Program-made: the position numbers and the translations under genes
Part shown: positions 7,810-56,964 of the stretch, one piece after another
Position numbering within the stretch: position 1 is the first letter of the stretch
How the letters are laid out: the number at the start of each line of letters is the position of its first letter
Virus record (IMG/VR): IMGVR_UViG_3300029131_000181
Origin: a virus
Length of the DNA: 64,000 bases
Strand: one strand, 5' to 3'
The notes under the pieces: generated by a model
Told to the model about the DNA's origin: nothing
What the model saw: the letters and a program-made list of their open reading frames with translations, nothing else
Database searches by the model: none

Positions 7810-7850
7810 CAAAAAAAGCGGACCTACCCCGCTATGGGATAAGTCCGCTT
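7810..7850 (-). terminator. leader hairpin + U-run between promoter and RBS
   Basis: Minus strand AAGCGGAC-loop-GTCCGCTTTTTTTGTTGAAAGGAG, followed by ATG 7792. Confidence 0.65.
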
Positions 7851-7901
7851 AAAATACAGATTGTGAATCCTACTGATTTTTAGTATCTGTTCACATTTTA
7901 T

Positions 7902-7929
7902 ATTGTACGGCGTTCGTATATTTTGGCAA
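7902..7929 (-). promoter_or_regulatory. motif-class promoter, copy 3 (degenerate core)
   Basis: TTGCCA-AAATATACGAACGCCG-TACAAT. Confidence 0.45.
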
Positions 7930-7932
7930 GCG

Positions 7933-8145
7933 CTATTTTTCCCCAAACTTGATGTCGATATATACAATCTCAAAGCACAGTGCAGCGCTCAAGGCAAATC
8001 CGAGAACGATATACGACGGGTGAGTTAAGGACCAGCCAGGATTCGCTAGATACCCATGCCAATATCTAATGTTAAGTACAAAAATAAACACCGGCAGAAT
8101 TAGATACCAGATGCTTTCCAGCACAATTTTGATGTCTTTTCGCAT
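7933..8145 (-). CDS. small membrane protein
   Basis: 70 aa with two hydrophobic segments. Confidence 0.5.
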   Translation of the reverse strand: MRKDIKIVLESIWYLILPVFIFVLNIRYWHGYLANPGWSLTHPSYIVLGFALSAALCFEIVYIDIKFGEK

Positions 8146-10702: not shown

Positions 10703-11017
10703 TTATTGATATTCAGAAAAATTCCCTGATTTGTGATTATATTCGTGTTGGTCGAGTTGGCGTGGCTGCATCGAAACAGTGCGCAACGTTCTGAGTCTGT
10801 GCATAACGCCTCCTCTCACCAGCGGCGATAAGGTATCCCTGCCGCTGAGGTTATGAGTCCTAGCTCTGTCGTCTGAATCAGCCAGAATCGCCAGCAACTC
10901 ATCGAGGATGCCGATATAGTTGTCGTCATTGATATACTGGATGGTGTTAATCATGGCCGTTTTCAGTGCATTGATAGGTTCTCCGCGCATCGAGCCGGAA
11001 GTATCGACAACGAACAA
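10703..11017 (-). pseudogene. vWA gene fragment
   Basis: Bases 10907-11015 are ~90% identical to 44101-44209 inside the intact vWA gene and encode FVVDTSGSMRGEPINALKTAMINTIQYINDDNYIGI. The rest of the ORF is unrelated. Confidence 0.75.
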
Positions 11018-11026
11018 AGCTATTTC

Positions 11027-11800
11027 TTAGTCTGTGCGGGTGTATCCGTGGTCAGCTAACCATTTATGTACTTCATTCGTGACGTCCAATGTATCGATGG
11101 AATAGCTGTTAACTCCCAGTTTGCCATTGGAAAGATTCATGCCGATATTATAAATGAGCTTGTGGCCTTTCATTTTGCCGATGGTCGTTGTGCTTCCTGC
11201 GGCGAATGTTTTGACTCCGACGCCGAGTTCCGAGTTATTCTCGTAGTCCAGCTCTTTGTAAGTAAAATTGTCTTGTACAAGAATCAGTTTTTTGAAAATC
11301 TGATGACTCTGCAAGATGCCATTATAAATGGAAAGGCAGTTTTGCCAATCGGCTTCAAAATCAATCCAGTTCCCGAATGTGGAAGCTGTCAATGGAGCAT
11401 TAGGACTCTGGTTGATAGCCGCTGCCTCTTGAAGCAGCAGTTTCTTAGGTGTTTTGTATTCCGCTACCGGATAGTTAATTTCGCCCTTGCACAGTATTTT
11501 CGCAAATGCTTTGACGGCAAGCTTACCAAAGATAACGCAGAAGCATCCGCAGAAACCAAAAAATGCGCCAAGCAGATAGAATACAAGTGTTGCTGTATGG
11601 ATGCTTTCGGGGTCGTATCTCTGCGCTGATGCCTCCGAAATAGCAAGGCCAATTGGAATCAGCAGCAAGATAATGCCGAAAATTATAAAGGCGATTCCCA
11701 TTGTTACCCACATCTGACCCGTACCTGCCGGGGTCGCATATTTCAGTGCTCTTTTCCGTTCTTTCTCAGACGGAATCATCTTATCCTTTTTGGCTGCCAT
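11027..11800 (-). CDS. membrane protein
   Basis: 257 aa with RBS AAAAGGAGGAGG. Two or three TM segments in the N-terminal third. Confidence 0.7.
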   Translation of the reverse strand: MAAKKDKMIPSEKERKRALKYATPAGTGQMWVTMGIAFIIFGIILLLIPIGLAISEASAQRYDPESIHTATLVFYLLGAFFGFCGCFCVIFGKLAVKAFAKILCKGEINYPVAEYKTPKKLLLQEAAAINQSPNAPLTASTFGNWIDFEADWQNCLSIYNGILQSHQIFKKLILVQDNFTYKELDYENNSELGVGVKTFAAGSTTTIGKMKGHKLIYNIGMNLSNGKLGVNSYSIDTLDVTNEVHKWLADHGYTRTD

Positions 11801-17283: not shown

Positions 17284-18807
17284 TCAGGCAGCCATCTTCG
17301 CTGCGGTTTTGCCCTTCGGACCCTTCTTCCGTGCATTGGCTTCAAGCTCCTTCTTGTTGGTATCATACCAAACCTCGAACTCCTTGAAGTTGTTCAACGC
17401 CCAAATCTCAGGAGAAGCCTTGCGACCGTAAGTTTCTTCCAACAGGTGGATAACTTTGCGGCCAACTTCTTCCATGATTTCGGCATCGTATTTGCCGCCA
17501 CCGCAGTAAAACCCTTCAGGCATAATAATGTCGTATTTAGGGTCAAGAACTTCAAGCCCCGGCTCCAAAACGCGAATGCCTTTGTAGCCAGCTTTGCGTA
17601 CAGCTTCAAATTTGAAGCGGTCCTTTTCGGCAGCATCTGCGTGCGGATATTTTCCATTATACTCATAAATGAGTCTCTGGATATGGTCCACGAAGTCTAA
17701 TCCCAAAAGACTATTTTCGCCCAAGATGTTTCGAACATCAAAGAAGGGGTTGGCAATTCCGTTTTCACCGGCAAATGCCAACATGGGACGTGTGTAAAAC
17801 CACTCCGGCTTGGAAATGGCATTGATTCTTCGCATTTTGCAGTCGTAGCATCCAGTAAGACCGTTGTTCACAGAACGAACAATATTGTTAATTGCAGCTT
17901 CGAATTCTTGCCCGCAATCACGGCATTTGAAGAAGGCTTTTTTGTTGCTTTGAACAGTTACTTCTGAAGCAGAAAGCTTGTTTTTACTACTCCACATGGA
18001 GGCTGCTTTCGGACATTGCGACGCAAGGTCATTGATGCCGGGAACAACCCTCCGACCTACGCAAACTAGGCATCCAGTGTTGCCGTTTTTTACAGCACAA
18101 ACAACATCTCCAATTATGGCTTTGAACTCTTGCCCACAATCCGGGCACACAAAGAAAGCTTTTTTCCCGCTTTTAGCTGTGACTTCTGAAGCGGAAAGCT
18201 TATTTTTATTACTCCACATAGCGGCTGCTTCTGGGCACTGTGACGCAAGGTCATTGATGCCAGGGGCAACTCTTAGTCCTCTGCAAACAGGGCAACCTGT
18301 GTTTCCGTTACTTACAGAATAGACAACGTGTTCGATTTTGGCTTCAAATTCTTCCCCGCAGTCCGGGCATACGAATATCGCCTTTTTGTTGCATTTGACA
18401 GCAATTTCCGAGGCAGACTTTTTGTTTTTGTTACTCCACATAGCTGCAATTTCCGGGTATTTCGACGCAAGGTCGTTGATGCCGGGGATAATCTTTCTTC
18501 CTGCGCAAACAGAGCAACCCGTGAATCCCTTGTCTACAGAACGAACAACATTAAAGATTCTGCTTTCAAATTCCTGCCCGCAATCAGGACACACAAAAGT
18601 GAGTTTTTTATTGCTTCCAGTAGTAACTTCAAAGGCAAGTTTCTTATCTTTTTCGCTCAGCATTGCAGCTACTTTTGGGCAAGCAACAGCAAGGCAATTT
18701 TTCTTAACCACTTCATACGGCATCTCAATGCCAAGAGCCGGAATAGGAGCGCAAGAAGCGCAGTTGCAAGAGTTAGCGTGCATCATAATTTTCATGTTAG
18801 TATTCAT
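17284..18807 (-). CDS. zinc-ribbon repeat protein with C-terminal Vsr/DUF559-like domain
   Basis: Trimmed to MNTNMKIMMH (AAAGGAG RBS). Four 74-aa repeats of the form PGINDLAS..P..AAMWS.KNK.SASEV......FF.CPDCGQEF......V......GNTGC.VC. C-terminal LDFVDH..IYEYNG..H resembles the Vsr-like nuclease core. Confidence 0.75.
   Translation of the reverse strand: MNTNMKIMMHANSCNCASCAPIPALGIEMPYEVVKKNCLAVACPKVAAMLSEKDKKLAFEVTTGSNKKLTFVCPDCGQEFESRIFNVVRSVDKGFTGCSVCAGRKIIPGINDLASKYPEIAAMWSNKNKKSASEIAVKCNKKAIFVCPDCGEEFEAKIEHVVYSVSNGNTGCPVCRGLRVAPGINDLASQCPEAAAMWSNKNKLSASEVTAKSGKKAFFVCPDCGQEFKAIIGDVVCAVKNGNTGCLVCVGRRVVPGINDLASQCPKAASMWSSKNKLSASEVTVQSNKKAFFKCRDCGQEFEAAINNIVRSVNNGLTGCYDCKMRRINAISKPEWFYTRPMLAFAGENGIANPFFDVRNILGENSLLGLDFVDHIQRLIYEYNGKYPHADAAEKDRFKFEAVRKAGYKGIRVLEPGLEVLDPKYDIIMPEGFYCGGGKYDAEIMEEVGRKVIHLLEETYGRKASPEIWALNNFKEFEVWYDTNKKELEANARKKGPKGKTAAKMAA
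17790..18681 (-). repeat. 4 x 222-bp in-frame tandem repeat inside the CDS
   Basis: ACTCCACA landmark recurs at 17989, 18211 and 18433 (period 222). Limits approximate. Confidence 0.8.
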
Positions 18808-18927
18808 GATAGATTTCTCCTTTGTTATCAATAAAAATAAAAAAGCAGCCACCCTTCCCTCTTTTGAGGGCAAAAGCGACTGCTTTACGTTCAATGGGTA
18901 TTGAGTTGTTATTCATGAAGAATTGCT

Positions 18928-19113
18928 TCACTCGTCCAGCATAACCTGCAAACGGGCGTTGAATTCCTTCATGTCGGCGCTTTCCTCGGCTGCAGCAAGG
19001 ACACGCGGATAAATTTCCGGATTCATGCTCTTCAGCATGTTCAGAGTAGAAAGAAGCAGAGGGTTGGTGATAGTCATAGTAAGCATCTCCTTGTTATTCA
19101 TAGTAATGTTCAA
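18928..19113 (-). CDS. hypothetical small protein
   Basis: 61-aa ORF whose stop-proximal region is followed by the next gene. The upstream gene overlaps by 4 nt. Confidence 0.45.
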   Translation of the reverse strand: MNITMNNKEMLTMTITNPLLLSTLNMLKSMNPEIYPRVLAAAEESADMKEFNARLQVMLDE

Positions 19114-19952
19114 ACGTTGGTATTCGTGCGATGGCCTTTCAGCGTGCCCTTGTTGAACTGTGTCAAACGGGCGTGCTTCAGAACAAATCCGTCTTCGAAT
19201 TGAACGTCAACGGCGTTTGTGCTGATGATGCGAATGATGGTTGCTTTCGAGCCATCATTCATGGTCTTGGTCATAGGTCCGCTATACTCGACCTTAAAAT
19301 CGAAAGGAAGCGGCTTATGCTTGGTGCAGCAGGGACAAGAAGAACTGCCGTTATTGATGCAGTGGACAAGAGAATTCACGTGAGTGACGTATTCTTCTCC
19401 GCAATCCGGGCATACAATGACGACCTTCTTGCAGCTATTGGCACTTACTTCACGCGGGGAGAAAGCGTTTTTGCTGCTCCACATTTTTGCCACGGCAGGA
19501 GATGTGGTTGCCAAGTCATTGGTTCCGGGAACGACTTTCATGCCACGGCATACGGGGCAAGTGAAGGTTCCATTCTCGATGTCTTTGACCAAAGAGATGA
19601 TTTTTGTTGTGTACTCTGCATGACAATCAGGGCATACAACAATCACCTTTTCGGGACTGTCACAGCGAACTTCGTCGGGATGAATCGTGTTTTTAGGACT
19701 CCACATAGCTGCAATTTTGGGATACTTGGTAGCCAAATCATTGACTCCGGGAACAAGCTTTTCGCTATGGGTTTCTTCGGCTTTGAATGCCGTAGTTACC
19801 TTACGGTTTTTGACCGTTTTGAATCGGCAGACAGGGCAGGCAGTTACGCCACGCTGCTTAGCTCTAACAAGGTTTGCCTCGTAGGTTGTGTATTTGCAAC
19901 CGCAATCGGGGCAGATGGTGATGACTTTTTCGTTCATGTTAATGTTATTCAT
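19110..19952 (-). CDS. zinc-ribbon repeat protein (paralog of 17284-18807)
   Basis: Trimmed to MNNINMNEKVITICPDCG. Three CPDC..CPVC treble-clef-like units with VPG.NDLAT linkers. Weak RBS. Confidence 0.65.
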   Translation of the reverse strand: MNNINMNEKVITICPDCGCKYTTYEANLVRAKQRGVTACPVCRFKTVKNRKVTTAFKAEETHSEKLVPGVNDLATKYPKIAAMWSPKNTIHPDEVRCDSPEKVIVVCPDCHAEYTTKIISLVKDIENGTFTCPVCRGMKVVPGTNDLATTSPAVAKMWSSKNAFSPREVSANSCKKVVIVCPDCGEEYVTHVNSLVHCINNGSSSCPCCTKHKPLPFDFKVEYSGPMTKTMNDGSKATIIRIISTNAVDVQFEDGFVLKHARLTQFNKGTLKGHRTNTNV

Positions 19953-20008
19953 GATAGTTCCGGGTGCTGCTCTTGATGCAATCTCCACAGCGGGTCGGTC
20001 GCTTCTGC

Positions 20009-20044
20009 AAAACAAAAAGGACAACCTCAAAATGAGGCTGTCCT
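20009..20044 (-). terminator. leader hairpin + U-run between promoter copy 7 and gene
   Basis: Minus strand AGGACAGCC-loop-GGTTGTCCTTTTTGTTTT. Confidence 0.6.
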
Positions 20045-20100
20045 TGCAAAAGCGGAATGTTAAAAATAAATTGGTAAGTGGTATCTTTGATACAACATCT

Positions 20101-20128
20101 ATCATAGCCATCTCGCACACATTGTCAA
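20101..20128 (-). promoter_or_regulatory. motif-class promoter, copy 7
   Basis: TTGACA-ATGTGTGCGAGATGGC-TATGAT. Confidence 0.55.
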
Positions 20129-20129
20129 A

Positions 20130-20169
20130 CAAAAAAAGACCCTGCCCGCATTTTGCTGCGAGCAGGGTT
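20130..20169 (-). terminator. rho-independent terminator
   Basis: Minus strand AACCCTGCTCGCAGCAAAATGCGGGCAGGGTCTTTTTTT, after gene 20189-20509. Confidence 0.75.
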
Positions 20170-20188
20170 TGCTTTTGCACTGTTGTGC

Positions 20189-27923: not shown

Positions 27924-27959
27924 AATAAAAAATCCAGCACCGAATTACTCAGCACTGGA
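27924..27959 (-). terminator. hairpin + U-run directly before the methyltransferase RBS
   Basis: Minus strand TCCAGTGC-loop-GCTGGATTTTTTATTGGGAG. Overlaps the stop of the upstream gene. Confidence 0.5.
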
Positions 27960-29813
27960 TGTATTTTCCGTATTACAATGACCGCATGATGTTTTCTTGT
28001 TTTCTACAAGACTTTGGGTTATCGCAAAGCATTCGTTTCCGCAATCACATTGACATTTCCATCGAGCATGACCGTTTTGGCTTCCTGCTCTCTCAATGAC
28101 CTTTAGCTTACCAAAGTGCATATTAGCTAAATCGTAAGTTCTTCCTTTTTTGACGAACTTATCGCGTGATGGATTTGCTTTCAAAAAGGCATCTGCTTCC
28201 TCTTCTGTCATGCTTTCGTATTCATTGGCAAATAACCAATGATATCCTCCGGCAACTGTACGTAGCTTGTTGCAGCAGTTCAAGATAGGCGAACCGCCGC
28301 TAATCCCGTATTTAAGAGAAGCCTCTTTTGCTGTAGAAAATCTCTCTTTTGTTTCAACGCAAATCACACTCTTGAAGTGTTTTTGTTTATAGCATTCAGG
28401 GCAGTTATGCCCGTATACTCTATCGGCTATTATCATCTTGTAGGAATGACCGTTTTTGCATTTCCACCAGCATTTTTCTGCAGACCCGGATGAGAAATAT
28501 TCGGGCTTCAAATTCTTGTTTTTTTCGTAATCCCATTCAGCAACAATTTCAGGATGTTCTGTAGCAAGGTTGTTCTTTTCGTTCCGTCTTCTTTTGCCTG
28601 TTGTACAAACAGGACATGTTGCGTTTTCTTTTGCTCTGCCATTGATGGGTGCTTCCCATTTATGCCCGCACTTAGAGCAAATCCAATGAACCATTTCTGA
28701 GCTAGATGATGACACCATCATCGGGTCAATGCCTACATTCAGTTCGTAGTCCCATTCTTTCAGGAGTTCCGGATGCCGTCCGCCCATACTTCGTTCAGCT
28801 TTGTAATCTTTGTATTGACGATAGATGTCTTTTGAATCCTTTTGTGTATCAATGTTAGGTTCAGAAACGCCAAGCATCTCTAAGCATTGGCGAATTGCTG
28901 CGTCGAGCGTTGCGTGCCCTCTATTGTTTTCTCTGATGATATTCTCGCTATTACGAATTTCCTGAAGCCCATGCTCGCGAATACGAATTATCCGAATTCC
29001 ATTCTGCTTGCATTTTTCGGACTTTTCTTCGTCATTTTTCACTCTTTTCTCATCAGAATGGTATCGAACACCATCGTATTCTACTGCAGTGCGAATGGAG
29101 GGGATGTAAATGTCCAGCTCTTTTCCAATAACTTTCTTGTTTCCAATAACAGCCTCTGAAAAATACTTTTTTGCATAATACGCTACTGCTTGTTCTTGGA
29201 ACGAGGTCTGTCCTTTATCGATAGTGCTGCATATCGGGCAACTCTTGATACGCTGGATGTAATGATATACGCTTGCCTGCCATTCCGTGCCACAAGCAGA
29301 GCATTTCCACCATACAACAATATTGCTTCCTTGTGTCAGCATACTGACATCTACGTCCTTATTTTTTGCAAAGTCATAGTCTTGCATAGCTTCTGCATTA
29401 TCTACAAGCATTTTCGAAGCTTCGGTAATGTGTTTGCAACAACCGCAAGACTTCACTTTTCCCCGCAGCAAAGAAGAGCGATAAGCAACAAATTCTTTTC
29501 CGCAGCTACACATACAGTTATAACGAATGTTTCTATGCCCCGTGCTTCCAATCGCATCTTCTGCCAAAGAAATAACTTTGATACCGTTGTGTTCTTCGCC
29601 AACCAAATCCTGGTATGTACGTTTACGGTCTTTACCTCGGCAGTCTTTACACTTTAACCCTTTCAAGAGCGCGTCGATACCAATTATCATTGTGTTTCCG
29701 CAGCAGTTACATTTCACCAAATAGGTATCTGCTTTTGAATTAGAGCCGGGGATAGTTTCGAAAACTGTTAAATCTCCGTATGTTTTGCCTGTTCTATTTA
29801 TTTTCGCCGCCAT
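27945..29813 (-). CDS. mosaic zinc-ribbon / Vsr-like endonuclease / NUMOD-like HTH protein (homing-endonuclease-like)
   Basis: 622 aa. CxxC ribbons throughout. KELDIYIPSIRTAVEYDGVRYH is a Vsr/DUF559-type core. HPELLKEWDY..WICSKCGHKW is a DUF4379-like ribbon. FSTAKEASLKYGISGGSPILNCC..GGYHW is a NUMOD/IENR-like HTH. Confidence 0.75.
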   Translation of the reverse strand: MAAKINRTGKTYGDLTVFETIPGSNSKADTYLVKCNCCGNTMIIGIDALLKGLKCKDCRGKDRKRTYQDLVGEEHNGIKVISLAEDAIGSTGHRNIRYNCMCSCGKEFVAYRSSLLRGKVKSCGCCKHITEASKMLVDNAEAMQDYDFAKNKDVDVSMLTQGSNIVVWWKCSACGTEWQASVYHYIQRIKSCPICSTIDKGQTSFQEQAVAYYAKKYFSEAVIGNKKVIGKELDIYIPSIRTAVEYDGVRYHSDEKRVKNDEEKSEKCKQNGIRIIRIREHGLQEIRNSENIIRENNRGHATLDAAIRQCLEMLGVSEPNIDTQKDSKDIYRQYKDYKAERSMGGRHPELLKEWDYELNVGIDPMMVSSSSSEMVHWICSKCGHKWEAPINGRAKENATCPVCTTGKRRRNEKNNLATEHPEIVAEWDYEKNKNLKPEYFSSGSAEKCWWKCKNGHSYKMIIADRVYGHNCPECYKQKHFKSVICVETKERFSTAKEASLKYGISGGSPILNCCNKLRTVAGGYHWLFANEYESMTEEEADAFLKANPSRDKFVKKGRTYDLANMHFGKLKVIERAGSQNGHARWKCQCDCGNECFAITQSLVENKKTSCGHCNTENTSSAE

Positions 29814-40016: not shown

Positions 40017-40904
40017 TCAGTAAATAAACTTGCATTCCCGGCGTTCCCGGCCATTGCCGCACCAGTAATGCCGCCAGCGGGGAGTTTTGCCTTCCCCATT
40101 CTTTTTGTATTCTTTGGCCGCATTCTCACCAACGGTATATGTCTTGACGTTGATTCGCTGTGCCTTTCCCTGAAACACGAATACCGGGCGGTCACGCTTT
40201 TTGGAAGTTTCCAAGCAGACATCAGGGTTCTTGCTGGCAAGATAGTTGGCGCACAGGATTGCCAGCCGGACATAAGGTGTGCCGCCGTCAAAGACCGAAG
40301 GGACTGCTTCCATCACAGCCGGTACGCTGATACCATTTACTTGCCGCTGCCCTGCTGCCTTTTCCAGGTATTCTTTCGTGCTCCGAGTTGCTTCCGTCAA
40401 ACTCTGATTTTCCTTGGCCCAGGCAGGCAGAGTCAGGAACGTGAAATCATCGTGGCTGCCCTTAGTGGGGCCGACAAGAACGATACCGAAAGCTGTGGTT
40501 TTCTCTTTTTCGTCGAATTCCACATGCACGAACATACCGTTGTAGTCGTAGCTGTCATACACCGGGATAAAGAAATCACGAACCGGGAGTCGCTGCAGGA
40601 TATCCTGATGAATTGCCACGTCATCCGTATCCATCAGCATTTTCTGAAACTCGTAGTCAAAATCATAGACCGTCTTCGTCTGATTCCAGCAGCCAATGGT
40701 AAAGCAGGGAAAAATCTGCGCAGCCAAAACACGCTCAAAACCCGGCGTGTTCATTCTCTGCGCCGCTGTCATGCAGCACAGCATCGCGGACTTGTTGTAT
40801 TCTTCCAGCGTTTTTCCACACGGGTCACTGAATCCAAAATGGTTTCGGGTTTGTTTGGTAACGGCATTCGCCGTCAATGCGATTCTCAGCTGTTCATTGG
40901 TCAT
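40017..40904 (-). CDS. hypothetical protein
   Basis: 295 aa. ATGA overlap with the upstream gene. Confidence 0.65.
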   Translation of the reverse strand: MTNEQLRIALTANAVTKQTRNHFGFSDPCGKTLEEYNKSAMLCCMTAAQRMNTPGFERVLAAQIFPCFTIGCWNQTKTVYDFDYEFQKMLMDTDDVAIHQDILQRLPVRDFFIPVYDSYDYNGMFVHVEFDEKEKTTAFGIVLVGPTKGSHDDFTFLTLPAWAKENQSLTEATRSTKEYLEKAAGQRQVNGISVPAVMEAVPSVFDGGTPYVRLAILCANYLASKNPDVCLETSKKRDRPVFVFQGKAQRINVKTYTVGENAAKEYKKNGEGKTPRWRHYWCGNGRERRECKFIY

Positions 40905-41600: not shown

Positions 41601-42239
41601 TCATAGTCCTTTGACAAAATTCGGGTCGTAGTGGGACAGGACTTCCTCGTTCAAGCTGTATTCGCAGTTGATAGTCGTTGCGTCATCCACATACATGCCT
41701 CGGTTTGCGTAGTATATTCCATCAATATAAATGGCGAACATGACGGACGGCATCAGTGCCTTTTCATTCACTGCGTAAATCAGGTATTCATCCAGATTAT
41801 CCTTGACCACCGCGCTCTTATTGATTTGGGCGATTTGCTGTCCGCCAAGAAATACAGGGCAGCATACTCCTTCTTTTCCAAAACCAATTTTGTAGCTCTG
41901 GTATTCCTCGCCATACAGCTGCATGGCGATAGAATTGTATCCTTGGAGGAATCCGGTTTTTGTATGGATGACGGAAATCTCGCCTACCCTGCGGTTGTTC
42001 TCACAGATAGCAAAAGGGTGTCTCAGAATATCTTTCGTGTTGATGCCGCGCATGTACGCCCTTGCGTCAGCAGCTGGCATGTATTGCAGCAGGAACTTGG
42101 AATCATTCAGCCGGATGCCATAACCTTGCCGCAGCACTTTCGGAATATAGTGTGCCTGCCCGATAACGGCCTTGCCTTTCACGATATCGAAGGTGAACTC
42201 ATATCCTTTCGATTTGGTTTGCTTCACAATCCATTGCAA
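41601..42239 (-). CDS. hypothetical protein
   Basis: 212 aa. TTG start 10 nt after GGAGG. Confidence 0.6.
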   Translation of the reverse strand: MQWIVKQTKSKGYEFTFDIVKGKAVIGQAHYIPKVLRQGYGIRLNDSKFLLQYMPAADARAYMRGINTKDILRHPFAICENNRRVGEISVIHTKTGFLQGYNSIAMQLYGEEYQSYKIGFGKEGVCCPVFLGGQQIAQINKSAVVKDNLDEYLIYAVNEKALMPSVMFAIYIDGIYYANRGMYVDDATTINCEYSLNEEVLSHYDPNFVKGL

Positions 42240-42667
42240 AACTCAATCGCCTCCTTTTGCCTTCTCACTCGCTGGATAACCTTGTAAATACCAGGAACCG
42301 AGAGCTGATATTTTTCGGATAGTTTCTGCACCGGCACGCCGCTCTCGTATTCTCGAAAGATATTCTCATTGCGCGGTCTTTGTCTAATTTTGATGCGCTC
42401 ATTTCTACGGTTTTCAGTCAGGCCCGCATCGTTGGCAACCATGCTGCAATATCCTTCTGCCACGTTGAATTTTGCAATCATTTCCTTGAGAGGGACACTG
42501 GCTTTGTACGCAGCAAGAATTTCGGCCTTTCTAGCATCCTCTACCTGCGCCAACTGAATTCTGGCCTCCTGTTTCGCGTCGTCTAACGCTCGATAGCATG
42601 TACGGACGCTCAACCTGTATTTTGCGGCAAGCTCCTCAATGGAATAGCCGTTGCCGTAGTCTTTCAT
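42224..42667 (-). CDS. multi-HTH repeat DNA-binding protein (fourth paralog)
   Basis: YSIEELAAKYRLSVRTCYRAL and VPVQKLSEKYQLSVPGIYKVI are the same unit type as genes 1-1481. The start is uncertain: ATG 42667 has no RBS, and an AAGGAG lies at about 42735. Confidence 0.6.
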   Translation of the reverse strand: MKDYGNGYSIEELAAKYRLSVRTCYRALDDAKQEARIQLAQVEDARKAEILAAYKASVPLKEMIAKFNVAEGYCSMVANDAGLTENRRNERIKIRQRPRNENIFREYESGVPVQKLSEKYQLSVPGIYKVIQRVRRQKEAIEFCNGL

Positions 42668-42750
42668 GATATTGCAATTTCGCTCAATCAACTTTTTGCT
42701 TGCAAATTTTGAGATGGTACTCAACTCCTTTGCTTTACGCTTTATTTCTG

Positions 42751-42778
42751 ATTGTCTGCAATTCGCACAAATGGGCAA
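42751..42778 (-). promoter_or_regulatory. motif-class promoter, copy 14
   Basis: TTGCCC-ATTTGTGCGAATTGCA-GACAAT. Confidence 0.55.
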
Positions 42779-43180: not shown

Positions 43181-43570
43181 TCACCATCCTCCACGACCAA
43201 GGCGAACCCACTCGGTTTTCGTGGTGTGCGAAGTATGATGAGCATATACTTCATATTGCAGCTTGCGCTCATACTCTGCTCTTGACGCTTGTTCTTCCTT
43301 CAGCTCCTTGACTGTGGCGAGCAGCTTATCTTCTCGACCTTCCGCTTCACCCTTGGCAAAAGCTGCTTTTTCGGCTTCTTCGATGCGCTGGTATCTGCTC
43401 TTTCGCTCTTTCTCGATGTAGAGTAACCCGTTGGCTACTGCATCAAGGAACGCTTGCATCTCAGATTCCGGGATAGGTTCTTGGCTTTCTCTGCTTTTGG
43501 ATATACAGCAAAAGCCCTCATCGTCGTAATGGATGAAATAGGGTGAGTTCGGAACCTGTTGTACTCGCAT
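43181..43570 (-). CDS. hypothetical coiled-coil protein
   Basis: 129 aa with RBS GGAAGGAAG. Charged helical middle region. Confidence 0.6.
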   Translation of the reverse strand: MRVQQVPNSPYFIHYDDEGFCCISKSRESQEPIPESEMQAFLDAVANGLLYIEKERKSRYQRIEEAEKAAFAKGEAEGREDKLLATVKELKEEQASRAEYERKLQYEVYAHHTSHTTKTEWVRLGRGGW

Positions 43571-43689
43571 AGGGCACTTCTTCCTTCCGTCTCAAAGACA
43601 ATTTGCCGGGACTGTCTCCCGTTGCCCGCTGCTCGCCGCGTGGAGGCTGTCTTTTGGAGCAGCTGCGCGGACAAAACCGCGCTTTTGAG

Positions 43690-45384
43690 TTACATCTCTG
43701 CGTTAAACAGGTTGCGGAGCTTGTAGGTGATATCCTCGCTGTTGCCGACGATAGCTGCCGCTTCGTTGATGGAAGCGAGCTCCGAAAGACTATCCGCTGC
43801 GTAGTTGTAGCTGATGGTGTAAATGGGGATATCCATACCGGCAATGATGTTCTTCGTATCGGAGAAGCCATATCCGGTATTGTTGTCACCGTCCGTGAGC
43901 ACAAAGATGATGGGCGTGCAATTCCCACCCAGTTCCTGAGATTTCTGGTAGATGCGGTCCATAGCAACGCAAAGACCGTTGTACATTGCGGTGCTGCCGT
44001 TCGCATCGAGGGAGTTCACGGCACCCTTATACAGAGTTTTCTGGGTCAGAGAGAACTGGTTAATGGGCAGGTATTCCCTGACATCTGAATCAAAGCCAAT
44101 GATGCCGATATAGTTGTCGTCATTGATATACTGGATGGTGTTTATCATCGCGGTTTTCAGGGCATTCAGGGGTTCGCCGCGCATCGAGCCGGAAGTATCG
44201 ACAACGAACTCTGCCACAATAGGAATGCCTGAGTCCTTCTCTTCTTTCCAGACACTCTGAGCCTGTGCGATGGTGTTGCCATCGTATGCCTTGCCTGTAT
44301 AAGCATAGTCGTCAAGACCATTGAATCCGTCCTTGGTCGCCTCTGCCTGGTTCTGAGCGCAGAAGGAAACGAAGGCAGCAATAACTTCCTTCTTCTCCGC
44401 AGAGACATTCCCGATGGAATACAGAGGATTATCGTGCCGTACACCGAACGGGATGAACTCGTAGTTGCGCTGTAAGGTCGGGTCATTCTGATAAGACTGA
44501 TACTCCATGACAACGCCGTCCACGATGCCCTTGTCTGCCGACTGGACCATCTGCTGGGTCGTGAAGGATACGAGAGGGACGTTCGCTTGAAATTTCTGGA
44601 AATTCTCAACAGCAGCCGTATCGACAATCGTATCGCTGCCGCTGCTCGCAAGAGCCTCAAGCAGAAAATTAAGACCCGTAGCACTTGTGTAGGGGTTCGA
44701 GTATCCCATCATGAGTTTGCCATCGATGGTTGCGTTCAGAACGGAAGAAACAGACGCTTCACCGTATTCAGAGCGAAGCATATCCCCTGTCTTCTTTGAT
44801 ACGAGAATACCCGCCACATTGCCGACCAGACGGTCAGCCTCAACGGTCAATTCTACGCCCTCGTTCTTCACCAGCTCGCCAAAGAGCGTATTTGAGGGGG
44901 TATAGCACTCGGGCTGATACTTTCCCGTCGAGATGTACTCAGCCGCCGTACCGGACGGAATGGAGCGCAGGGAGACACTCATAGTCTTGTCTCCGGAAGT
45001 CTTGTTGTGCTGGGCGTTGAACTTCTTTGCCATTTCGGTCAGGAAAGAATCTGAGCCGGACTCTGCTGCTTTCTCGCCAGAGGAAAAGATTTCGATGTTC
45101 ACATCTCCGTTTCCTACGACCACGAATGGGTAGGAGGATTCAATGTCGGGCAGTTCATCCTTTGCATCAAGGAATTCAGAGACATCCAGCTGCTGAGGAT
45201 TGACCTTGACCTCCTGCACGCCGATGCGCTTCATCTTGCTGCTCAAGTTGGCATATGCCTGCTCGGACGTCATTGTACTAATGCTGACGTTTGAGTCCCT
45301 CATCACCGTCATCGAAAATACTCCGAGAACAACGCCTACCACAGCAATGGTTGCAACCACAGGGAAAATGTTCTTTTTTGTCAC
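43690..45384 (-). CDS. membrane-anchored vWA-domain protein
   Basis: GTG start after AAAGGAG. N-terminal TM IFPVVATIAVVGVVLGVF. C-terminal MIDAS VVDTSGSMRGEP..TAMYNGL..LTDGDNN. Confidence 0.85.
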   Translation of the reverse strand: MTKKNIFPVVATIAVVGVVLGVFSMTVMRDSNVSISTMTSEQAYANLSSKMKRIGVQEVKVNPQQLDVSEFLDAKDELPDIESSYPFVVVGNGDVNIEIFSSGEKAAESGSDSFLTEMAKKFNAQHNKTSGDKTMSVSLRSIPSGTAAEYISTGKYQPECYTPSNTLFGELVKNEGVELTVEADRLVGNVAGILVSKKTGDMLRSEYGEASVSSVLNATIDGKLMMGYSNPYTSATGLNFLLEALASSGSDTIVDTAAVENFQKFQANVPLVSFTTQQMVQSADKGIVDGVVMEYQSYQNDPTLQRNYEFIPFGVRHDNPLYSIGNVSAEKKEVIAAFVSFCAQNQAEATKDGFNGLDDYAYTGKAYDGNTIAQAQSVWKEEKDSGIPIVAEFVVDTSGSMRGEPLNALKTAMINTIQYINDDNYIGIIGFDSDVREYLPINQFSLTQKTLYKGAVNSLDANGSTAMYNGLCVAMDRIYQKSQELGGNCTPIIFVLTDGDNNTGYGFSDTKNIIAGMDIPIYTISYNYAADSLSELASINEAAAIVGNSEDITYKLRNLFNAEM

Positions 45385-45385
45385 G

Positions 45386-46189
45386 TTAAATTTCTCCTTT
45401 CAAGTTGTTATATCGTTTCATAGCCTCACGACTGATATCTTCATCCTGTTCAATATCCTGCGTCGTCTTGTTAATGACAGCATCGAGCTTTGACATTGCG
45501 AGCACAACCTCTGTATCCCACGGATTCTGGGCAGAACGTTGGTTCAGAGCGTATGCTAAAGAATCCAATCGGAGGATTAAGCGCTCATTGTCATGAACTA
45601 CCTTATCCACGGTACTTACGATACCATTGTAGATTTCTTTCTTTTTCTGCGCTTCTTCTTTGTTTCCAAACGAGATAGAGCCTTGACAGAAAGCCTTGTA
45701 TTCCGTTTCATCAAACATTGAAGCCGAGCGAATCGCGTCATCCAGTCGGTCATAGAAGATACGTTCTGCGGATTCCAATAACGTTAGGCACTTGGCTTGT
45801 TCCCCGGATGTCTTGCTATCCTGGGTCATGCTGTAGGCAACGGCCATTTTTTGCCCGAAGCGCCGTACCTGATACAGCATTTGGTCAGCCTGCTCTGAGA
45901 AGACGCTTTTTGTCTTTACTGCCGTTTGAATTTTGTTGGTATACAGCTCTTCTTTGCTTGTAGGCCGTTCAGATGCAGCAGAAGCCGCAGCTTTCTGCTT
46001 TTTGAGAAAATTGCGATATGCAATGTAGGCGCAGAGCAGCAGGAACAGGACTGGCGTGCCATATTTCGCAAGGAGGATAAGGAACAGCGATGTTCCGTGC
46101 ATGTATTCGATAGTGTAATAGGTGCTGATATAGGTTTCGACCATGTAGACTATAGCCGCTGCTATGATAATCAAACTCACGCCGAGCAT
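45386..46189 (-). CDS. membrane protein with helical cytoplasmic domain
   Basis: Trimmed to MLGVSLIIIAAAIVYMV (GGAGAGG RBS). Two N-terminal TM segments. The stop abuts the vWA start. Confidence 0.65.
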   Translation of the reverse strand: MLGVSLIIIAAAIVYMVETYISTYYTIEYMHGTSLFLILLAKYGTPVLFLLLCAYIAYRNFLKKQKAAASAASERPTSKEELYTNKIQTAVKTKSVFSEQADQMLYQVRRFGQKMAVAYSMTQDSKTSGEQAKCLTLLESAERIFYDRLDDAIRSASMFDETEYKAFCQGSISFGNKEEAQKKKEIYNGIVSTVDKVVHDNERLILRLDSLAYALNQRSAQNPWDTEVVLAMSKLDAVINKTTQDIEQDEDISREAMKRYNNLKGEI

Positions 46190-46259
46190 TAACTTCACCT
46201 CTCCGGTTTTACTCTATTTGCTATCAAGAGGGCTTGATACGAAGTATCTTTTGCTTCTA

Positions 46260-46287
46260 ATTATCTTCGATTCGCACGATTCAGCAA
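46260..46287 (-). promoter_or_regulatory. motif-class promoter, copy 15
   Basis: TTGCTG-AATCGTGCGAATCGAA-GATAAT. Confidence 0.55.
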
Positions 46288-46409
46288 CAAAGCCTTAACA
46301 TGCAAAAAAGACAGTCACCCTAATTGGATGGCTACCATGAACTTTTCGTTTGCGTCACAACAGAAAAAAGGATGGCTCTTTCGAGTCACCCTCTTTTTAT
46401 TCGTTGTCT

Positions 46410-48053
46410 TTAATCTTTGGCCTTTTTGTCTTTCATGATAGCCTTCTCTTCTTCGGTCACATCCGGTCGAAAATGAGTGACTTCCTCACCGTTGAGACTC
46501 TTCTCATGAATTAGATAGCCGCCTTCTACGCGTTCCATAGCATTGACACCTCCTTCCTTTTCACTATTCACAGGCTGTTCGCCTTGATTCATGATGTTGA
46601 TGTTGCGGTCGGTCTTTGCCTGGATGCTGTTGGCACGGACAATTTCGCCCATGTCGATTCCGGTCGCTTCTTTCACCGTCTGCATGGTTTGAGCCATCAG
46701 GATAGGAACGTTCCCGGAAACGCCGGATACGCCGGAGGCGTCACCGCCAATGATAGAAACCTTATCAATGCTGGACAAAGGCTGAGCCACGCTTTTGGCA
46801 ATGTCAGGAAGAACCTTGATGAGCATTTCAGCCACAGCCGCATCGTTATACTGCTTATATGCCTCTGCTTTCTGTTTCATGGCTTCCGCTTCAGCCAAGC
46901 CTTTCTGACGAATCGCTTCAGCTTCTGCCTTACCGACAAGTTCAATGCCTTCTGCTTCCTGCTGCTTGGAGAACTTCTGTGCCTCAGCTGCACGTTCCGC
47001 CTCATATTTCTTGGCTTCTGCCTCTTTCTGGCGGCGGTACAGGTCAGCATCTGCCTGTTTGCGGACTTCCGCATCCAGTTTGCGCTGCTGGACCTCGGCT
47101 TCCTGTGCGGCAAGGTCTACCATTTTCTTCTGCTTGGCGATTTCAGCATCCGCTTCCGCTTCTTTGATTTCTTTGGCGCGGAGATTCATCTGAATCTGAC
47201 CGGCAGCATCTGCGTCAGCCGCAGCTTTATCAGCTTCAGCTTTCAGCTTTGCCTTGGCGAGCTGCAATTCATTGTTGCGTTTTGCAATCGCAGTCTGCGC
47301 TTCAACTTCCTTGGCATTTGCAGCCATCTCAGCATCGGCCTTCGCGCAGGCTACATCACGGGCAGCCTGAGCACGGGCAATTTCAGCCTGTTTTTTCACA
47401 AGCTCTTCCTGTTCAATGCCGATAGCCTCAATGACGCCGTGGTTGTGGCCCTGAACATCCACCGCATCCCTGATATCCTGGACGTTAAAAGTCACGACCT
47501 CAAGTCCCATCTTAGCAAGGTCGGGGCGAGCATTCTCGATAACGCTCACAGCCATCTGCTTGCGGTTCGTCAGAATTTGGTCGACGGTCATGTCAGAGAC
47601 AATCTCACGCAAATTGCCCTGCAGAACGTCATTAACTTTCTCATTGATGCCCTGCTCGTTCATGCCCAGAAAGTTCGAGATGGCTGCCTGTTGGCGGGAC
47701 ATGATGTACGCCTTGGCGTCTTTCAGACCGGATGCCTTCACTTCTTCATCCAGAACGGTAGAGTTTTCGCTGTAGACTTGAATCGTGACAACAGAGTCAA
47801 TCCAGAGACTTACGCCGTTCTTCGTCTTAACACCTGTTTCAGGAGTTTTGACGTCAATTTTCAGAAGGCGCATATTTAGCCGGTCAGCCCGCTGAAGAAC
47901 GGGCAGAACAAATGTACCTTTTCCGCAAACTACTTTAGGCTTAGACAGACCAAAGCCGGTCACAACGATAGCCTCCGTGGGCGGAGCTTTCTTGTAGCAG
48001 AGAAATCCAAAGAGAATAATCAGGGCTGCCACAATCGCAATCACATATACCAT
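46410..48053 (-). CDS. flotillin-like SPFH/band-7 protein
   Basis: N-terminal TM, SPFH core (VVTGFG..VLPVLQRADRLNMRLLKIDV) and a long Ala/Glu/Lys-rich coiled-coil repeat region. Confidence 0.9.
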   Translation of the reverse strand: MVYVIAIVAALIILFGFLCYKKAPPTEAIVVTGFGLSKPKVVCGKGTFVLPVLQRADRLNMRLLKIDVKTPETGVKTKNGVSLWIDSVVTIQVYSENSTVLDEEVKASGLKDAKAYIMSRQQAAISNFLGMNEQGINEKVNDVLQGNLREIVSDMTVDQILTNRKQMAVSVIENARPDLAKMGLEVVTFNVQDIRDAVDVQGHNHGVIEAIGIEQEELVKKQAEIARAQAARDVACAKADAEMAANAKEVEAQTAIAKRNNELQLAKAKLKAEADKAAADADAAGQIQMNLRAKEIKEAEADAEIAKQKKMVDLAAQEAEVQQRKLDAEVRKQADADLYRRQKEAEAKKYEAERAAEAQKFSKQQEAEGIELVGKAEAEAIRQKGLAEAEAMKQKAEAYKQYNDAAVAEMLIKVLPDIAKSVAQPLSSIDKVSIIGGDASGVSGVSGNVPILMAQTMQTVKEATGIDMGEIVRANSIQAKTDRNINIMNQGEQPVNSEKEGGVNAMERVEGGYLIHEKSLNGEEVTHFRPDVTEEEKAIMKDKKAKD

Positions 48054-48146: not shown

Positions 48147-48174
48147 ATTGTCTGCAATTCGCACGATTCCGCAA
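48147..48174 (-). promoter_or_regulatory. motif-class promoter, copy 16
   Basis: TTGCGG-AATCGTGCGAATTGCA-GACAAT, upstream of the flotillin gene. Confidence 0.6.
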
Positions 48175-48210
48175 TAAACAAAACCCACAGGTGAGAGAAT
48201 GACCTGTGGG
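48173..48210 (-). terminator. rho-independent terminator of mini-transcript
   Basis: Minus strand CCCACAGGTCATTCTCTCACCTGTGGGTTTTGTTTATT. Confidence 0.75.
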
Positions 48211-48307
48211 CTTCGAAAAGAGGTAATTATGCGCAAGCAGACACGGCATCGATTCGTGGCGACCAACTACAATCACTACAAATGTCTCTTGCCGTTTCTC
48301 TTGTACA
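48178..48307 (-). ncRNA. candidate sRNA (promoter copy 17 to terminator)
   Basis: ~125-nt unit bounded by a motif promoter and a strong terminator. No RBS-preceded ORF. Confidence 0.4.
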
Positions 48308-48313
48308 ATTCTT

Positions 48314-48341
48314 ATTGTACGAAGTTCGCACAGCAGCGCAA
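48314..48341 (-). promoter_or_regulatory. motif-class promoter, copy 17
   Basis: TTGCGC-TGCTGTGCGAACTTCG-TACAAT. Confidence 0.55.
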
Positions 48342-54853: not shown

Positions 54854-55220
54854 TCAAGGACGAGCTGCTTGTGATAGCGCAAAGAGTTTTGTCATCCGTT
54901 TTATTTTGGAAATCAACGGTCCAGTAGTAGCCATAGCTGTCATCATAACCCACGTTCTGCAAGATGATGGTACAGGTATCGTTGTCGGCAATCGTCTGTG
55001 GCTGGAAACTCTCATCGAACTGGATGTCGGGTTCAGCCGTTGCATTATCGGCAGCACTACTTGCAGTACTCGTTGAAGAGTCGCTGGTGCTTTCCTCGGG
55101 GGATGCAGCATCAGATGTAGCTGCACTGCTGGCAGCAGTACTGGTAGTGTTAGAGCTGCTACAGGCGGCCAGGGAAAGGGCAAGCAAAGCCGAAAGTGCT
55201 AATGATACAACCTTTTTCAT
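54854..55220 (-). pseudogene. lipoprotein gene, N-terminal part (split by the iscB element)
   Basis: MKKVVSLALSALLALSLAACSSS lipobox. Colinear with the paralog up to ..NKTDDKTL. Confidence 0.85.
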
Positions 55221-55364
55221 GATTTTCTCCTTTTTTCTTTGTATAAGGCTATTATACATCAAAAGCGCTTCGGCATTTTACTTTTCCAGAACGAAACCTT
55301 TATTTACAAAGTTGCAAACGAAGCCTGGGAAAGTTAATAATTTTAATCGCAGGAGGGCGTCAAA

Positions 55365-56444
55365 TTATTCCGATGTTGTCACGGAATTTGTCTGAGGGTT
55401 AATAGTGAAAGTCTCATCTACATAGATGTCCCGAGTGCTGGAATTGTTTATAACGATTGGCATCACCATTTTGGTGACAGAGGTGGGGTCTTTACCGTTG
55501 GCCTCATAAGTATCTAAATAATCGTAATAGTAGATGTCTACATAGGCATTAGTGTGCGCATCAATTCCCATTGTATCTGTTTCAGGGAAGCACTCAAAGC
55601 CATTTATGGAACCTCCACTTCTAAAGGCAAACATGATTTCTTTATCCGTCTTGTTTTCTATGTAAGCTTTGGCCGTATAACCGTGTAGGCCGTTGGGGTC
55701 AAATCCACAAATCATCAGGGCGCAAGCGTCATTGTCGGCCAGTACGAGGTCTGTGGGTTGGGTTTCATGCTTTGGCTCGGTTGCGTTTTCTTCCCCTTTT
55801 GGATAAACCACGAAATCGTCATCAACAAAGTCATGCCGTGGGATAACATCATAATCTAATTCGTTATAGACATCGAGATAAAAACTTACCGTATTGATAT
55901 CCTGCGGATTGATGTTATAAATTTTAAGCCCGGAACTTTCCCAATGATGAATCTCCGTTTCCTCTTGACCAGGTTCAACACTCGTAAGCCAAAGGCTCGC
56001 ACCCACGCCATTCAATGTGCAGTCATCAAACGAGTAACCGAGTTTTTTATCTGATGTCTTATTCTTGAAATAAAGCTTCCAATAATAGCCGTAATCATCA
56101 TCGTAACCAACGCTCTGCAAGATAATGGTGCATTCTTCATTATCAACAAGTGTCTGTGCCTGGAAATCATTATCGTATGTAATTTTGGGTTCGGGGGACG
56201 GCGTAGGTAAATCGCTGCCTGTGCCGTTCCACACCCTTTCATATGTTTTGCCGTCTTCTGTAGTATATGTCTCTCCTACTTTAATCCCGTCAGGGCTGTA
56301 ATCTTGCGTGCTATTGGAAGTGCTATTTGACGAAGCACTTGACTTGGATTCACTTGAGGCTGCAGCAGAACTATCTGCCTTGCCACAGGCAGCCAACGAG
56401 AGGACGAGCAAAGTCGAAAGTGCTAATGATACAACCTTTTTCAT
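55365..56444 (-). CDS. lipoprotein (intact paralog)
   Basis: Trimmed to MKKVVSLALSTLLVLSLAACGK (AAAAGGAG RBS). Ser-rich linker followed by two related beta-rich halves. Confidence 0.8.
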   Translation of the reverse strand: MKKVVSLALSTLLVLSLAACGKADSSAAASSESKSSASSNSTSNSTQDYSPDGIKVGETYTTEDGKTYERVWNGTGSDLPTPSPEPKITYDNDFQAQTLVDNEECTIILQSVGYDDDYGYYWKLYFKNKTSDKKLGYSFDDCTLNGVGASLWLTSVEPGQEETEIHHWESSGLKIYNINPQDINTVSFYLDVYNELDYDVIPRHDFVDDDFVVYPKGEENATEPKHETQPTDLVLADNDACALMICGFDPNGLHGYTAKAYIENKTDKEIMFAFRSGGSINGFECFPETDTMGIDAHTNAYVDIYYYDYLDTYEANGKDPTSVTKMVMPIVINNSSTRDIYVDETFTINPQTNSVTTSE

Positions 56445-56964
56445 AGTGTTCTCCTTTTTTCTGTTTGTCAGAGCCATTATACACCAAAAGCACTTTGACT
56501 TATTTATTTTGGGAATATTTATCGCCAATTTGAGCGGATTGCACAAATAGCAAGAAGAAAATCAGTGCATATATGCTTCGACATTTTCCTTTCCCCTCTG
56601 CATTTTCCAGAACGAAACTTTTAATGCAGGCTTTCCCAAACGAAACTTTTGGGAGTTGTGATTTGAACTTGACAGCATTTGCGGCAGCTGAGATTTTGCT
56701 ATTCGCCTGTTCCGATTGTCTCACCACAGATACGAAGCAGCGCATTTCGCTTTTGTGAGATACATCTCATATTTGGAAAGGCTGCGACAAAATTCTGAGG
56801 TTTCAGCGGCTCGCTTGCGACATTTTTCCAACTTTTTGGGCAGCAAAAAAGCCCTACCAGAATGGTAGAGTCTTTGCATGTTTTCTTTCGGTCATACGAG
56901 TAGGAAGCGTCATTTATCCGATATTCTTTCGCGCAAAAAAATGAACTTGCTTCGAGGTGAAGCG

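Follow-up and report, generated by a model that had tools for sequence, protein, structure and literature searches.

Do three adjacent minus-strand genes, coding for a flotillin, a protein with two transmembrane (TM) segments (2-TM protein) and a membrane-anchored protein with a von Willebrand factor A (vWA) domain, belong to one functional system? The question is raised by positions 43690-48053 of a 64,000-nt stretch of DNA, IMG/VR record IMGVR_UViG_3300029131_000181, which was analyzed as a whole and is referred to as "the window" in this study. The initial annotation had read the three genes as a single operon on a mobile element, with a hint at a stress-response or defense context. The explanation that we favor, and consider probable, is that the locus carries two independent cargo units in a variable island of a very large phage-like element, not a three-gene system: the flotillin gene by itself, and the 2-TM and vWA genes as a tightly coupled pair. 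The locus architecture as described below is very likely correct.

All three open reading frames (ORFs) of the initial annotation are present where it had placed them, and the assigned gene content (a flotillin, a 2-TM helical protein and a TM-anchored vWA protein with a metal ion-dependent adhesion site, MIDAS) is right by domain and hydrophobicity evidence. The window proteins were compared by tblastn with all fetched loci, in which L001-L017 are ENA/Logan loci and L018-L058 are 41 IMG/VR loci. The 2-TM and vWA genes were adjacent in every one of the 41 IMG/VR loci (including two with an inserted gene), in the ENA/Logan loci, and in 18 of 18 informative loci from GTDB genomes, these being metagenome-assembled genomes of Oscillospiraceae, Ruminococcus, "Clostridia" and Lachnospiraceae from the rumen and from rabbit and deer gut. 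In the chromosomal copies, the upstream protein is homologous to the 2-TM protein of the window, with 16-28% identity and the shared motifs Q-x3-F-x2-K and N-x2-L-x4-D-x-L (alignment A1). The neighbors of the chromosomal pair differ at every locus and are mostly housekeeping genes (Fur/peptide deformylase/citrate synthase; cellulase-dockerin/Hen1/Pnkp; enolase/hydrogenase; thioredoxin/CDF transporter/MatE). The gap between the two genes is a single nucleotide in the window (TAA c GTG), in agreement with the initial annotation, 1-5 nt in the phage copies, and at most about 60 nt, with a ribosome-binding site, in the chromosomal copies. The pair is a conserved chromosomal gene pair of Clostridia (Oscillospiraceae, Ruminococcus, Lachnospiraceae) that was captured by a phage lineage.

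This adjacency does not extend to the flotillin gene. Of the 41 IMG/VR loci, only seven have it next to the pair, each of them from the closest clade (2-TM protein at least 97% identical), and in the other 34 it is not within 10 kb; no flotillin gene was found within 6-10 kb of the chromosomal pairs at any locus. In L023 the pair and its promoter are kept and the flotillin gene is gone, while in L085 the flotillin gene is present and the pair is gone. The flotillin gene is truncated and the pair is missing in L100-L102; in L100 an HNH-like endonuclease gene, similar to the RRXRR/HNH gene of the window, is inserted at the point of truncation. In L001, a TGC-to-TGA change has created a nonsense codon at position 236 of the flotillin gene. 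Within the closest clade, the flotillin gene and the pair have been lost independently. As the flotillin gene is adjacent in only 7 of 41 loci, is independently lost, and is absent from the chromosomal pairs, the trio is not a conserved unit, which is the outcome that the initial annotation had itself named as a refutation, and genes 2 and 3 form a robust cassette. The operon of the initial annotation therefore holds in part: the tight coupling of the last two genes is borne out, and the inclusion of the flotillin gene in the same unit is contradicted by the gene neighborhoods.

The promoters are also arranged as two units. Thirteen copies of the motif TTGC-N6-GTGCGAAT-N5-ANAAT with no more than two mismatches were found, all on the minus strand, versus 0.06 expected; these include copies at 1594, 15992, 20558, 38392, 41540, 42751, 46260, 48147 and 63458. 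The conserved GTGCGAAT block inside the spacer suggests an element-encoded transcription factor or sigma factor. The promoters at 48147-48174 and 46260-46287 lie exactly as had been claimed. The former is about 90 nt upstream of the flotillin start codon. The latter, ahead of genes two and three, is real, and is kept in every closest-clade locus, including the flotillin-less L023. In clades with 2-TM proteins that are 72-81% identical, the pair stands directly behind other genes (PhoH, CxxC/HNH-like), with no motif promoter. The coordinates of all features at the locus are collected in the table.

Table. Features of the flotillin and 2-TM/vWA locus, listed in the direction of transcription (window coordinates)
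Feature	Position	Strand	Basis or remark
Motif promoter, upstream copy (TTGCGCTGCTGTGCGAACTTCGTACAAT)	48314..48341	-	1 mismatch to the motif
Motif promoter directly 5' of the flotillin gene ("copy 16" of the initial annotation)	48147..48174	-	0 mismatches
FloT-type flotillin, 547 aa	46410..48053	-	ORF, Pfam, NCBIfam, human flotillin match
Two weak hairpins with T-runs (terminator-like), 3' of the flotillin stop codon and 5' of the next promoter	46316..46388	-	Consensus matches
Motif promoter of the pair, kept in flotillin-less L023	46260..46287	-	Motif scan
2-TM protein, 267 aa from ATG 46189	45386..46189	-	ORF open from GTG 46198; unnamed family
Signal-anchored binding-protein/vWA protein, 564 aa, GTG start	43690..45384	-	ORF, Pfam, structure model
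Predicted HDV-like self-cleaving ribozyme (Rfam RF02682)	43594..43663	-	Covariance model

Two further observations were made on the composition of the cassette. A 344-aa lipoprotein gene (lipobox LLTGC) is located between the 2-TM and vWA genes in L030 and L032 (10807-11841), which are two huge uncultivated viral genomes (UViGs), and the cassette there gains a third envelope protein. In addition, the pair is a mosaic, with vWA proteins 94-96% identical to that of the window in the clade where the 2-TM proteins are only 72% identical to their window counterpart, and 88-91% identical where this value for the 2-TM proteins is 79-98%, a pattern that implies recombination within the cassette or at its edge.

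The product of the first gene is a phage-borne, newly found representative of a known family. Its residues 22-230 make up an SPFH/Band_7 domain (PF01145 at 6e-22 in Pfam), its Flot domain is matched by PF15975 at 1e-9 (38.8 bits versus a cut-off of 27), and human flotillin-1 and flotillin-2 match it at about 1e-46 over residues 24-472 (8e-47 for flotillin-1). The protein begins with a hydrophobic anchor (residues 1-24, mean Kyte-Doolittle value 2.9). Its coiled coil, which includes the Flot domain, is rich in Ala, Glu and Lys, and about 75 aa at the C-terminus form a tail outside the match to known flotillins. The NCBIfam FloT model (NF058507) was aligned with it from end to end (positions 5-473 of 477), but the score of 269 bits did not reach the equivalog cut-off of 700 bits. 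By tblastn against phages, only matches of about 35% identity were obtained. The upstream neighbor of the gene is a divergent Phd/PIN toxin-antitoxin pair, and no NfeD-type partner gene was present among the scanned neighbors. When compared to FloT of B. subtilis (yuaF-floT-yuaI) and the human flotillin-1/2 cage, the protein has the same anchor, SPFH/Band_7 domain and Ala/Glu-rich coiled coil plus Flot domain; it differs from FloT in being borne by a phage element, in scoring below the cut-off, in lacking NfeD, in carrying the extra tail, and in being dispensable in its lineage. In the close relative L001, a HEARO RNA (an RNA associated with HNH endonuclease/IscB genes) is located just upstream of the flotillin gene, at 7837-8097, with 91 bits versus a gathering score of 83.

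The second gene codes for a protein of an unnamed family. Its ORF spans 45386-46198 (270 aa), and an ATG at 46189 behind GGAGAGGTG gives 267 aa as in the relatives; this ATG is most likely the start codon, judging from the sequence. An exact look-up of the 270-aa ORF returned no record, because the relatives start at the ATG. Hydrophobic segments are present at residues 1-24 and 33-57, and the remainder is helical. In the structure model (pLDDT, the predicted local distance difference test, 79.6 overall and above 90 through most of the soluble part), two TM helices are connected by a five-residue loop and followed by six cytoplasmic helices. The protein would thus have its N-terminus inside, a very short outer loop, and a cytoplasmic helical bundle of about 200 aa. 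Searches of Pfam, NCBIfam, PHROGs and PDB sequences gave nothing consistent, and no Pfam family covers it, even though a profile search among 1.84 billion representatives recovered 383 clusters of the family at 50% identity. A relationship to XpaC/TelA had been proposed on the basis of the 2-TM plus helical-domain architecture; it was rejected, as PF10112 and PF05816 matched none of 30 members. Among 60 members of the 2-TM family, PF10112 matched one at E 0.017, no better than chance, and the families listed did not include PF05816.

The third gene codes for a protein with two recognizable domains behind one N-terminal hydrophobic segment (residues 4-31), which is preceded by KK and carries no lipobox. 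The vWA domain occupies residues 393-552 (PF00092 at 7e-16 in Pfam) and has an intact MIDAS (D396-x-S398-x-S400, T465, D498) that is invariant in 18 sequences of relatives. The AlphaFold model (pLDDT 85.5, predicted template modeling score 0.83) is confident outside the TM segment. When it was compared by Foldseek with the PDB, residues ~40-385 were found to have the two-lobe fold of class-II periplasmic binding proteins, with matches to the thiamin protein TbpA (2qry), the ferric protein FbpA (7w3w), the sugar-phosphate protein AfuA (4r73), VcA0625 and a ModA-like protein (4kd5) at E values of 1e-9 to 4e-8 and target-normalized template modeling scores of about 0.6. The Pfam family PF13531 (SBP_bac_11) is precomputed on relatives of the vWA protein at 46-62% identity. 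Many positions of the binding domain are invariant in the 18 sequences, including R140-x3-S144-G-T146, which may resemble the oxyanion/phosphate-binding loop of PstS. The C-terminal domain (residues ~390-564) has its fold matches in ITIH1, alpha2delta-1, CLCA1 and CMG2, that is, in MIDAS vWA domains of the extracellular type, and a sequence search likewise gives alpha2delta, ITIH and CLCA1 as the best matches. As a hydrophobic segment of about 25 residues follows KK and there is no lipobox, the sequence suggests a signal anchor with both domains outside the cell. The nearest non-phage relatives found are 57-62% identical, and the protein is 88-99% identical across the phage clades. A tblastn search against phages gave no match, and no viral protein in BFVD had the full binding-protein plus vWA architecture, the matches being to the vWA domain only.

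A second piece of vWA sequence is present elsewhere in the window. A 40-codon fragment at 10904-11023 on the minus strand is 90% identical to vWA residues 390-429, i.e., the MIDAS region (a repeat of 109 nt with 93% nucleotide identity), and directly follows an unrelated 257-aa protein with apparent TM segments (ORF 11027-11800, minus strand). Such a fragment may have been left behind by a second cassette or by recombination.

The binding-protein/vWA protein and the 2-TM protein together represent an uncharacterized conserved pair that combines known domain types with one unnamed family, and each resembles parts of several known systems. The calcium-channel subunit alpha2delta (of voltage-gated Ca2+ channels), ITIH and CLCA1 share with the window protein the type of its C-terminal domain. 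We take alpha2delta to be the nearest analogy for how the pair may work: it, too, combines an extracytoplasmic MIDAS vWA domain and a small-ligand module, tethered to the membrane beside a multi-TM partner. However, the ligand module in the window is a class-II binding protein, not a dCache domain, the partner is a 2-TM helical bundle, not a channel, and the setting is that of bacteria and phages. Residues ~40-385 share their fold with TbpA, FbpA, AfuA and ModA (SBP_bac_11), and PF13531 is recorded on the relatives; in contrast to these class-II binding proteins, the window domain is fused to a vWA domain, is held by a TM anchor that looks uncleaved instead of a lipobox, and has no linked ATP-binding cassette (ABC) genes. 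A small operon with a membrane-anchored vWA protein is likewise a feature of BatA/BatB and the MoxR-vWA systems, and BatB (3ibs) was a weak match (E 0.04). Here the differences are that the vWA domain of the window is predicted to be outside the cell and is fused to a binding-protein domain; no MoxR AAA+ ATPase, DUF58 or tetratricopeptide repeat (TPR) gene was found in the window or related loci with annotated neighbors.

What would these two units do? Unit 1 is a single gene for a FloT-type flotillin, expressed from phage-motif promoters, with weak terminators behind it. If it behaves like the flotillins of bacteria and humans, its product would oligomerize on the inner face of the host membrane and scaffold or stabilize it, as a non-essential function. 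Unit 2 is a translationally coupled two-gene cassette expressed from its own phage-motif promoter, and our best guess for the role of the pair is a ligand-binding envelope complex. From its predicted topology, the vWA protein would display the binding-protein and MIDAS vWA domains on the outer face of the membrane. Hardly any of the 2-TM protein would be outside the cell, and hardly any of the vWA protein inside, so that any cooperation between the two, presumably in one complex, would have to pass through their three TM helices. In the outer head, the binding cleft might take a small anionic or metal ligand and the MIDAS an acidic partner, and the cytoplasmic bundle might either anchor the ligand-bound state or relay it inward. 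The phage would express this host-like envelope module during infection as non-essential cargo. This specific model of the complex and its ligand is tentative, and is more likely wrong than right.

A further element, absent from the initial annotation, lies directly behind the cassette. The model RF02682 ("HDV ribozyme from F. prausnitzii", where HDV is hepatitis delta virus) matches over its full length (positions 1-74 of 74) with 60.4 bits versus a gathering score of 44. The predicted ribozyme is separated by 27 nt from the stop codon of the vWA gene and by 24 nt from the ORF that follows (43181-43570). In L005 it scores 57.2 bits, also above the gathering score, and at least 26 related loci have the same core about 46 nt downstream of the stop codon of the vWA gene; no such ribozyme was found at the chromosomal copies of the pair. 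In L085, from which the pair is deleted, the ribozyme follows the flotillin gene and precedes a homologue of ORF 43181-43570, which indicates that it is part of the 5' end of that downstream gene. In HDV-like ribozymes, the cleavage site is at the 5' edge of the ribozyme itself. The transcript would thus be cut between the cassette and the next gene, releasing the mRNA of the pair just past its stop codon and leaving the downstream mRNA with a structured 5'-OH end. Ribozymes of this type have been documented in F. prausnitzii, with an example upstream of glmM (PMC6765202), and the HDV-like "theta" ribozymes of gut phages are mostly associated with tRNAs, with the non-tRNA examples left unexplained (PMC10879173). 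The window element, which passes the RF02682 gathering score, differs from most of the published phage examples in its location between protein-coding genes, and ARAGORN found no tRNA gene in the 64-kb window. The ribozyme class is known, and its placement between protein genes is not explained by published phage work.

On what kind of DNA are these units carried? Relatives of the 2-TM protein were found on 46 IMG/VR viral contigs, the longest of which are 389, 346, 247 and 222 kb, and ENA/Logan contigs with near-identical vWA genes reach 372 kb; the placement of the region on a mobile element is therefore upheld. Phage-type genes in the window and its relatives include Mor-type activators, PhoH/PIN_4, many DUF4379/HNH endonuclease genes, TnpB, AcrVA2-like and RRXRR/HNH genes, helicases and a Phd/PIN toxin-antitoxin pair. 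The Mor-like activator genes of the window are at 42224-42778 and 954-1619, with a weaker match at about 494-910. The status of the element as a "huge phage" rests on the IMG/VR listing and these phage-like genes. The DNA of the region had no megablast match among GenBank phages and PLSDB plasmids. The limits of the island are set between the conserved p489/p509 genes and the Mor gene, and the region within is a hypervariable cargo island with the two separate units.

How do other explanations fare beside two independent cargo units? If the three genes formed one functional trio, the flotillin would provide a microdomain scaffold for the 2-TM/vWA complex in stress response or defense. The genes are indeed adjacent on the same strand in the window, in seven close IMG/VR relatives and in L001, two relatives that are more distant have both a flotillin (87-89% identical) and the pair on their huge genomes, and a different Band_7 protein, of 286 aa, is encoded two genes upstream of the pair in L005-L008. 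However, no flotillin gene lies near the pair in most IMG/VR loci and in all chromosomal loci, it is lost independently (L023, L085, L100-L102) or interrupted by the nonsense codon of L001, and the units have separate promoters. In addition, PADLOC-DB 2.0 gave no match to any of the three proteins at E <= 0.1, so that a named defense system for the trio was rejected and the hint at a defense context is left without support. A functional trio is, on this evidence, decidedly unlikely. The same search bears on the notion that the pair, alone or together with the flotillin, serves in superinfection exclusion or against phages at the membrane, for example by masking a receptor or blocking DNA entry. 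Exclusion typically relies on membrane proteins encoded by phage accessory genes, the island is hypervariable with Phd/PIN, restriction-like helicase/methylase, GmrSD-like, HNH and AcrVA2-like neighbors, and the pair is dispensable to the phage. Yet the PADLOC models match none of the proteins, the chromosomal copies are mostly among housekeeping genes, not in recognizable defense islands, and the 88-99% identity of the vWA protein across phage clades looks physiological rather than the product of an arms race. We regard this explanation as unlikely, if conceivable.

Two explanations concern single genes of the locus. The binding-protein/vWA gene might be a nutrient-capture auxiliary metabolic gene that feeds a host ABC importer in the manner of cyanophage PstS. 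Its N-terminal domain does have the fold of the Fe3+, thiamin, sugar-phosphate and molybdate binding proteins, PF13531 is found on its relatives, and the invariant R140-x3-S144-G-T146 would fit a PstS-like loop if the resemblance noted above is real. This is nevertheless very unlikely, as no ABC permease or ATPase gene adjoins the pair in any context examined, and neither a fused MIDAS vWA domain nor an obligate 2-TM partner is characteristic of binding proteins that serve in uptake. The flotillin gene, on the other hand, could belong to an ordinary host floT operon on a chromosome, not to mobile cargo, an option that had been put forward as a refutation of the initial annotation. The end-to-end alignment to the FloT model would favor it, but the score far below the cut-off, the lack of an NfeD (YuaF-type) partner among the neighbors, and the fact that this locus and related ones, with their phage-motif promoters, are on viral contigs of IMG/VR leave it hardly any probability; by context and scores, the locus is not a housekeeping floT operon.

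Several points weigh against our preferred explanation of two independent cargo units on a huge phage-like element, or against parts of the model of the pair. The number of hairpin plus T-run elements behind the flotillin gene (two, both weak) is not above the chance expectation, and with such weak terminators transcripts of the flotillin gene may read through into the pair. In addition, at least two other genomes of the lineage contain the flotillin as well as the pair. The flotillin, 87-89% identical there, lies 14 kb from the pair in IMGVR_UViG_3300045988_181067 (389 kb) and about 180 kb from it in UViG 3300023499_000220 (346 kb), so that the two may be functionally linked without adjacency. 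With respect to the element, no capsid, portal or terminase gene was found among about 30 scanned ORFs of the window. With respect to the pair, PF13531 did not match the vWA protein of the window itself at E <= 0.1, the fold of the 2-TM domain matched only generic helical bundles, with no specific structural relative, and the pair has no linked ABC transporter or kinase, nor any other domain for an output, which leaves an inward relay without a target.

With two independent cargo units as the preferred explanation, a two-gene membrane cassette is defined that is widespread in gut and rumen Clostridia, and which a very large gut phage-like lineage has captured and keeps highly conserved. A phage-borne flotillin is documented that is plainly dispensable, and an HDV-like ribozyme is documented between protein-coding genes. 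No literature was found on this gene pair or on phage flotillins. These results do not overturn current views and are not very surprising; a speculative three-gene system is replaced by a sharper picture, with a corrected annotation and testable targets for envelope alteration and transcript processing by huge phages. A bolder possibility, which we consider quite unlikely, is that the pair is an undescribed two-protein transmembrane ligand-sensing or surface-exclusion device of gut Clostridia, captured by huge phages to reprogram or shield the envelope, and delimited by a phage promoter and by a ribozyme that serves as mRNA punctuation, not in tRNA processing.

Several minor features of the island and of the rest of the window were also observed. 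Downstream of the upstream promoter copy, positions 48175-48300 on the minus strand would be transcribed into an RNA of about 126 nt that is structured (-43.4 kcal/mol, z = -3.6) and ends in a strong hairpin with a T-tract (about 48213-48174) just before the flotillin promoter. This RNA, opposite which the divergent Phd/PIN toxin-antitoxin genes are located, may act as a leader or as a small RNA. In related genomes, gene calls fuse fragments of the pair to T5orf172, ResIII, NgoFVII or DUF4379 domains, and such fusions, like the HEARO RNA of L001, point to frequent endonuclease insertions in the island. The DUF4379 treble-clef zinc-finger gene of the window contains three tandem 222-nt repeats that are 69-76% identical (17848-18513, minus strand), related units are present in the next gene (19391-19761, minus strand), and the repeat-built endonuclease-like gene family comprises 17284-18894, 19110-20180 and 27945-29813. 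Downstream of the Mor gene there is a 295-aa ORF (40017-40904, minus strand), whose relatives (L001, 14419-15306) carry a precomputed match to the AcrVA2-like anti-CRISPR family PF26125, while Pfam gave no match on the window ORF at E <= 0.01. Finally, a 91-nt direct repeat with 84% identity (55157-55247 and 56381-56471) covers the starts and the signal-peptide-like N-termini of two neighboring minus-strand ORFs, and these look like paralogous genes for secreted proteins or lipoproteins.

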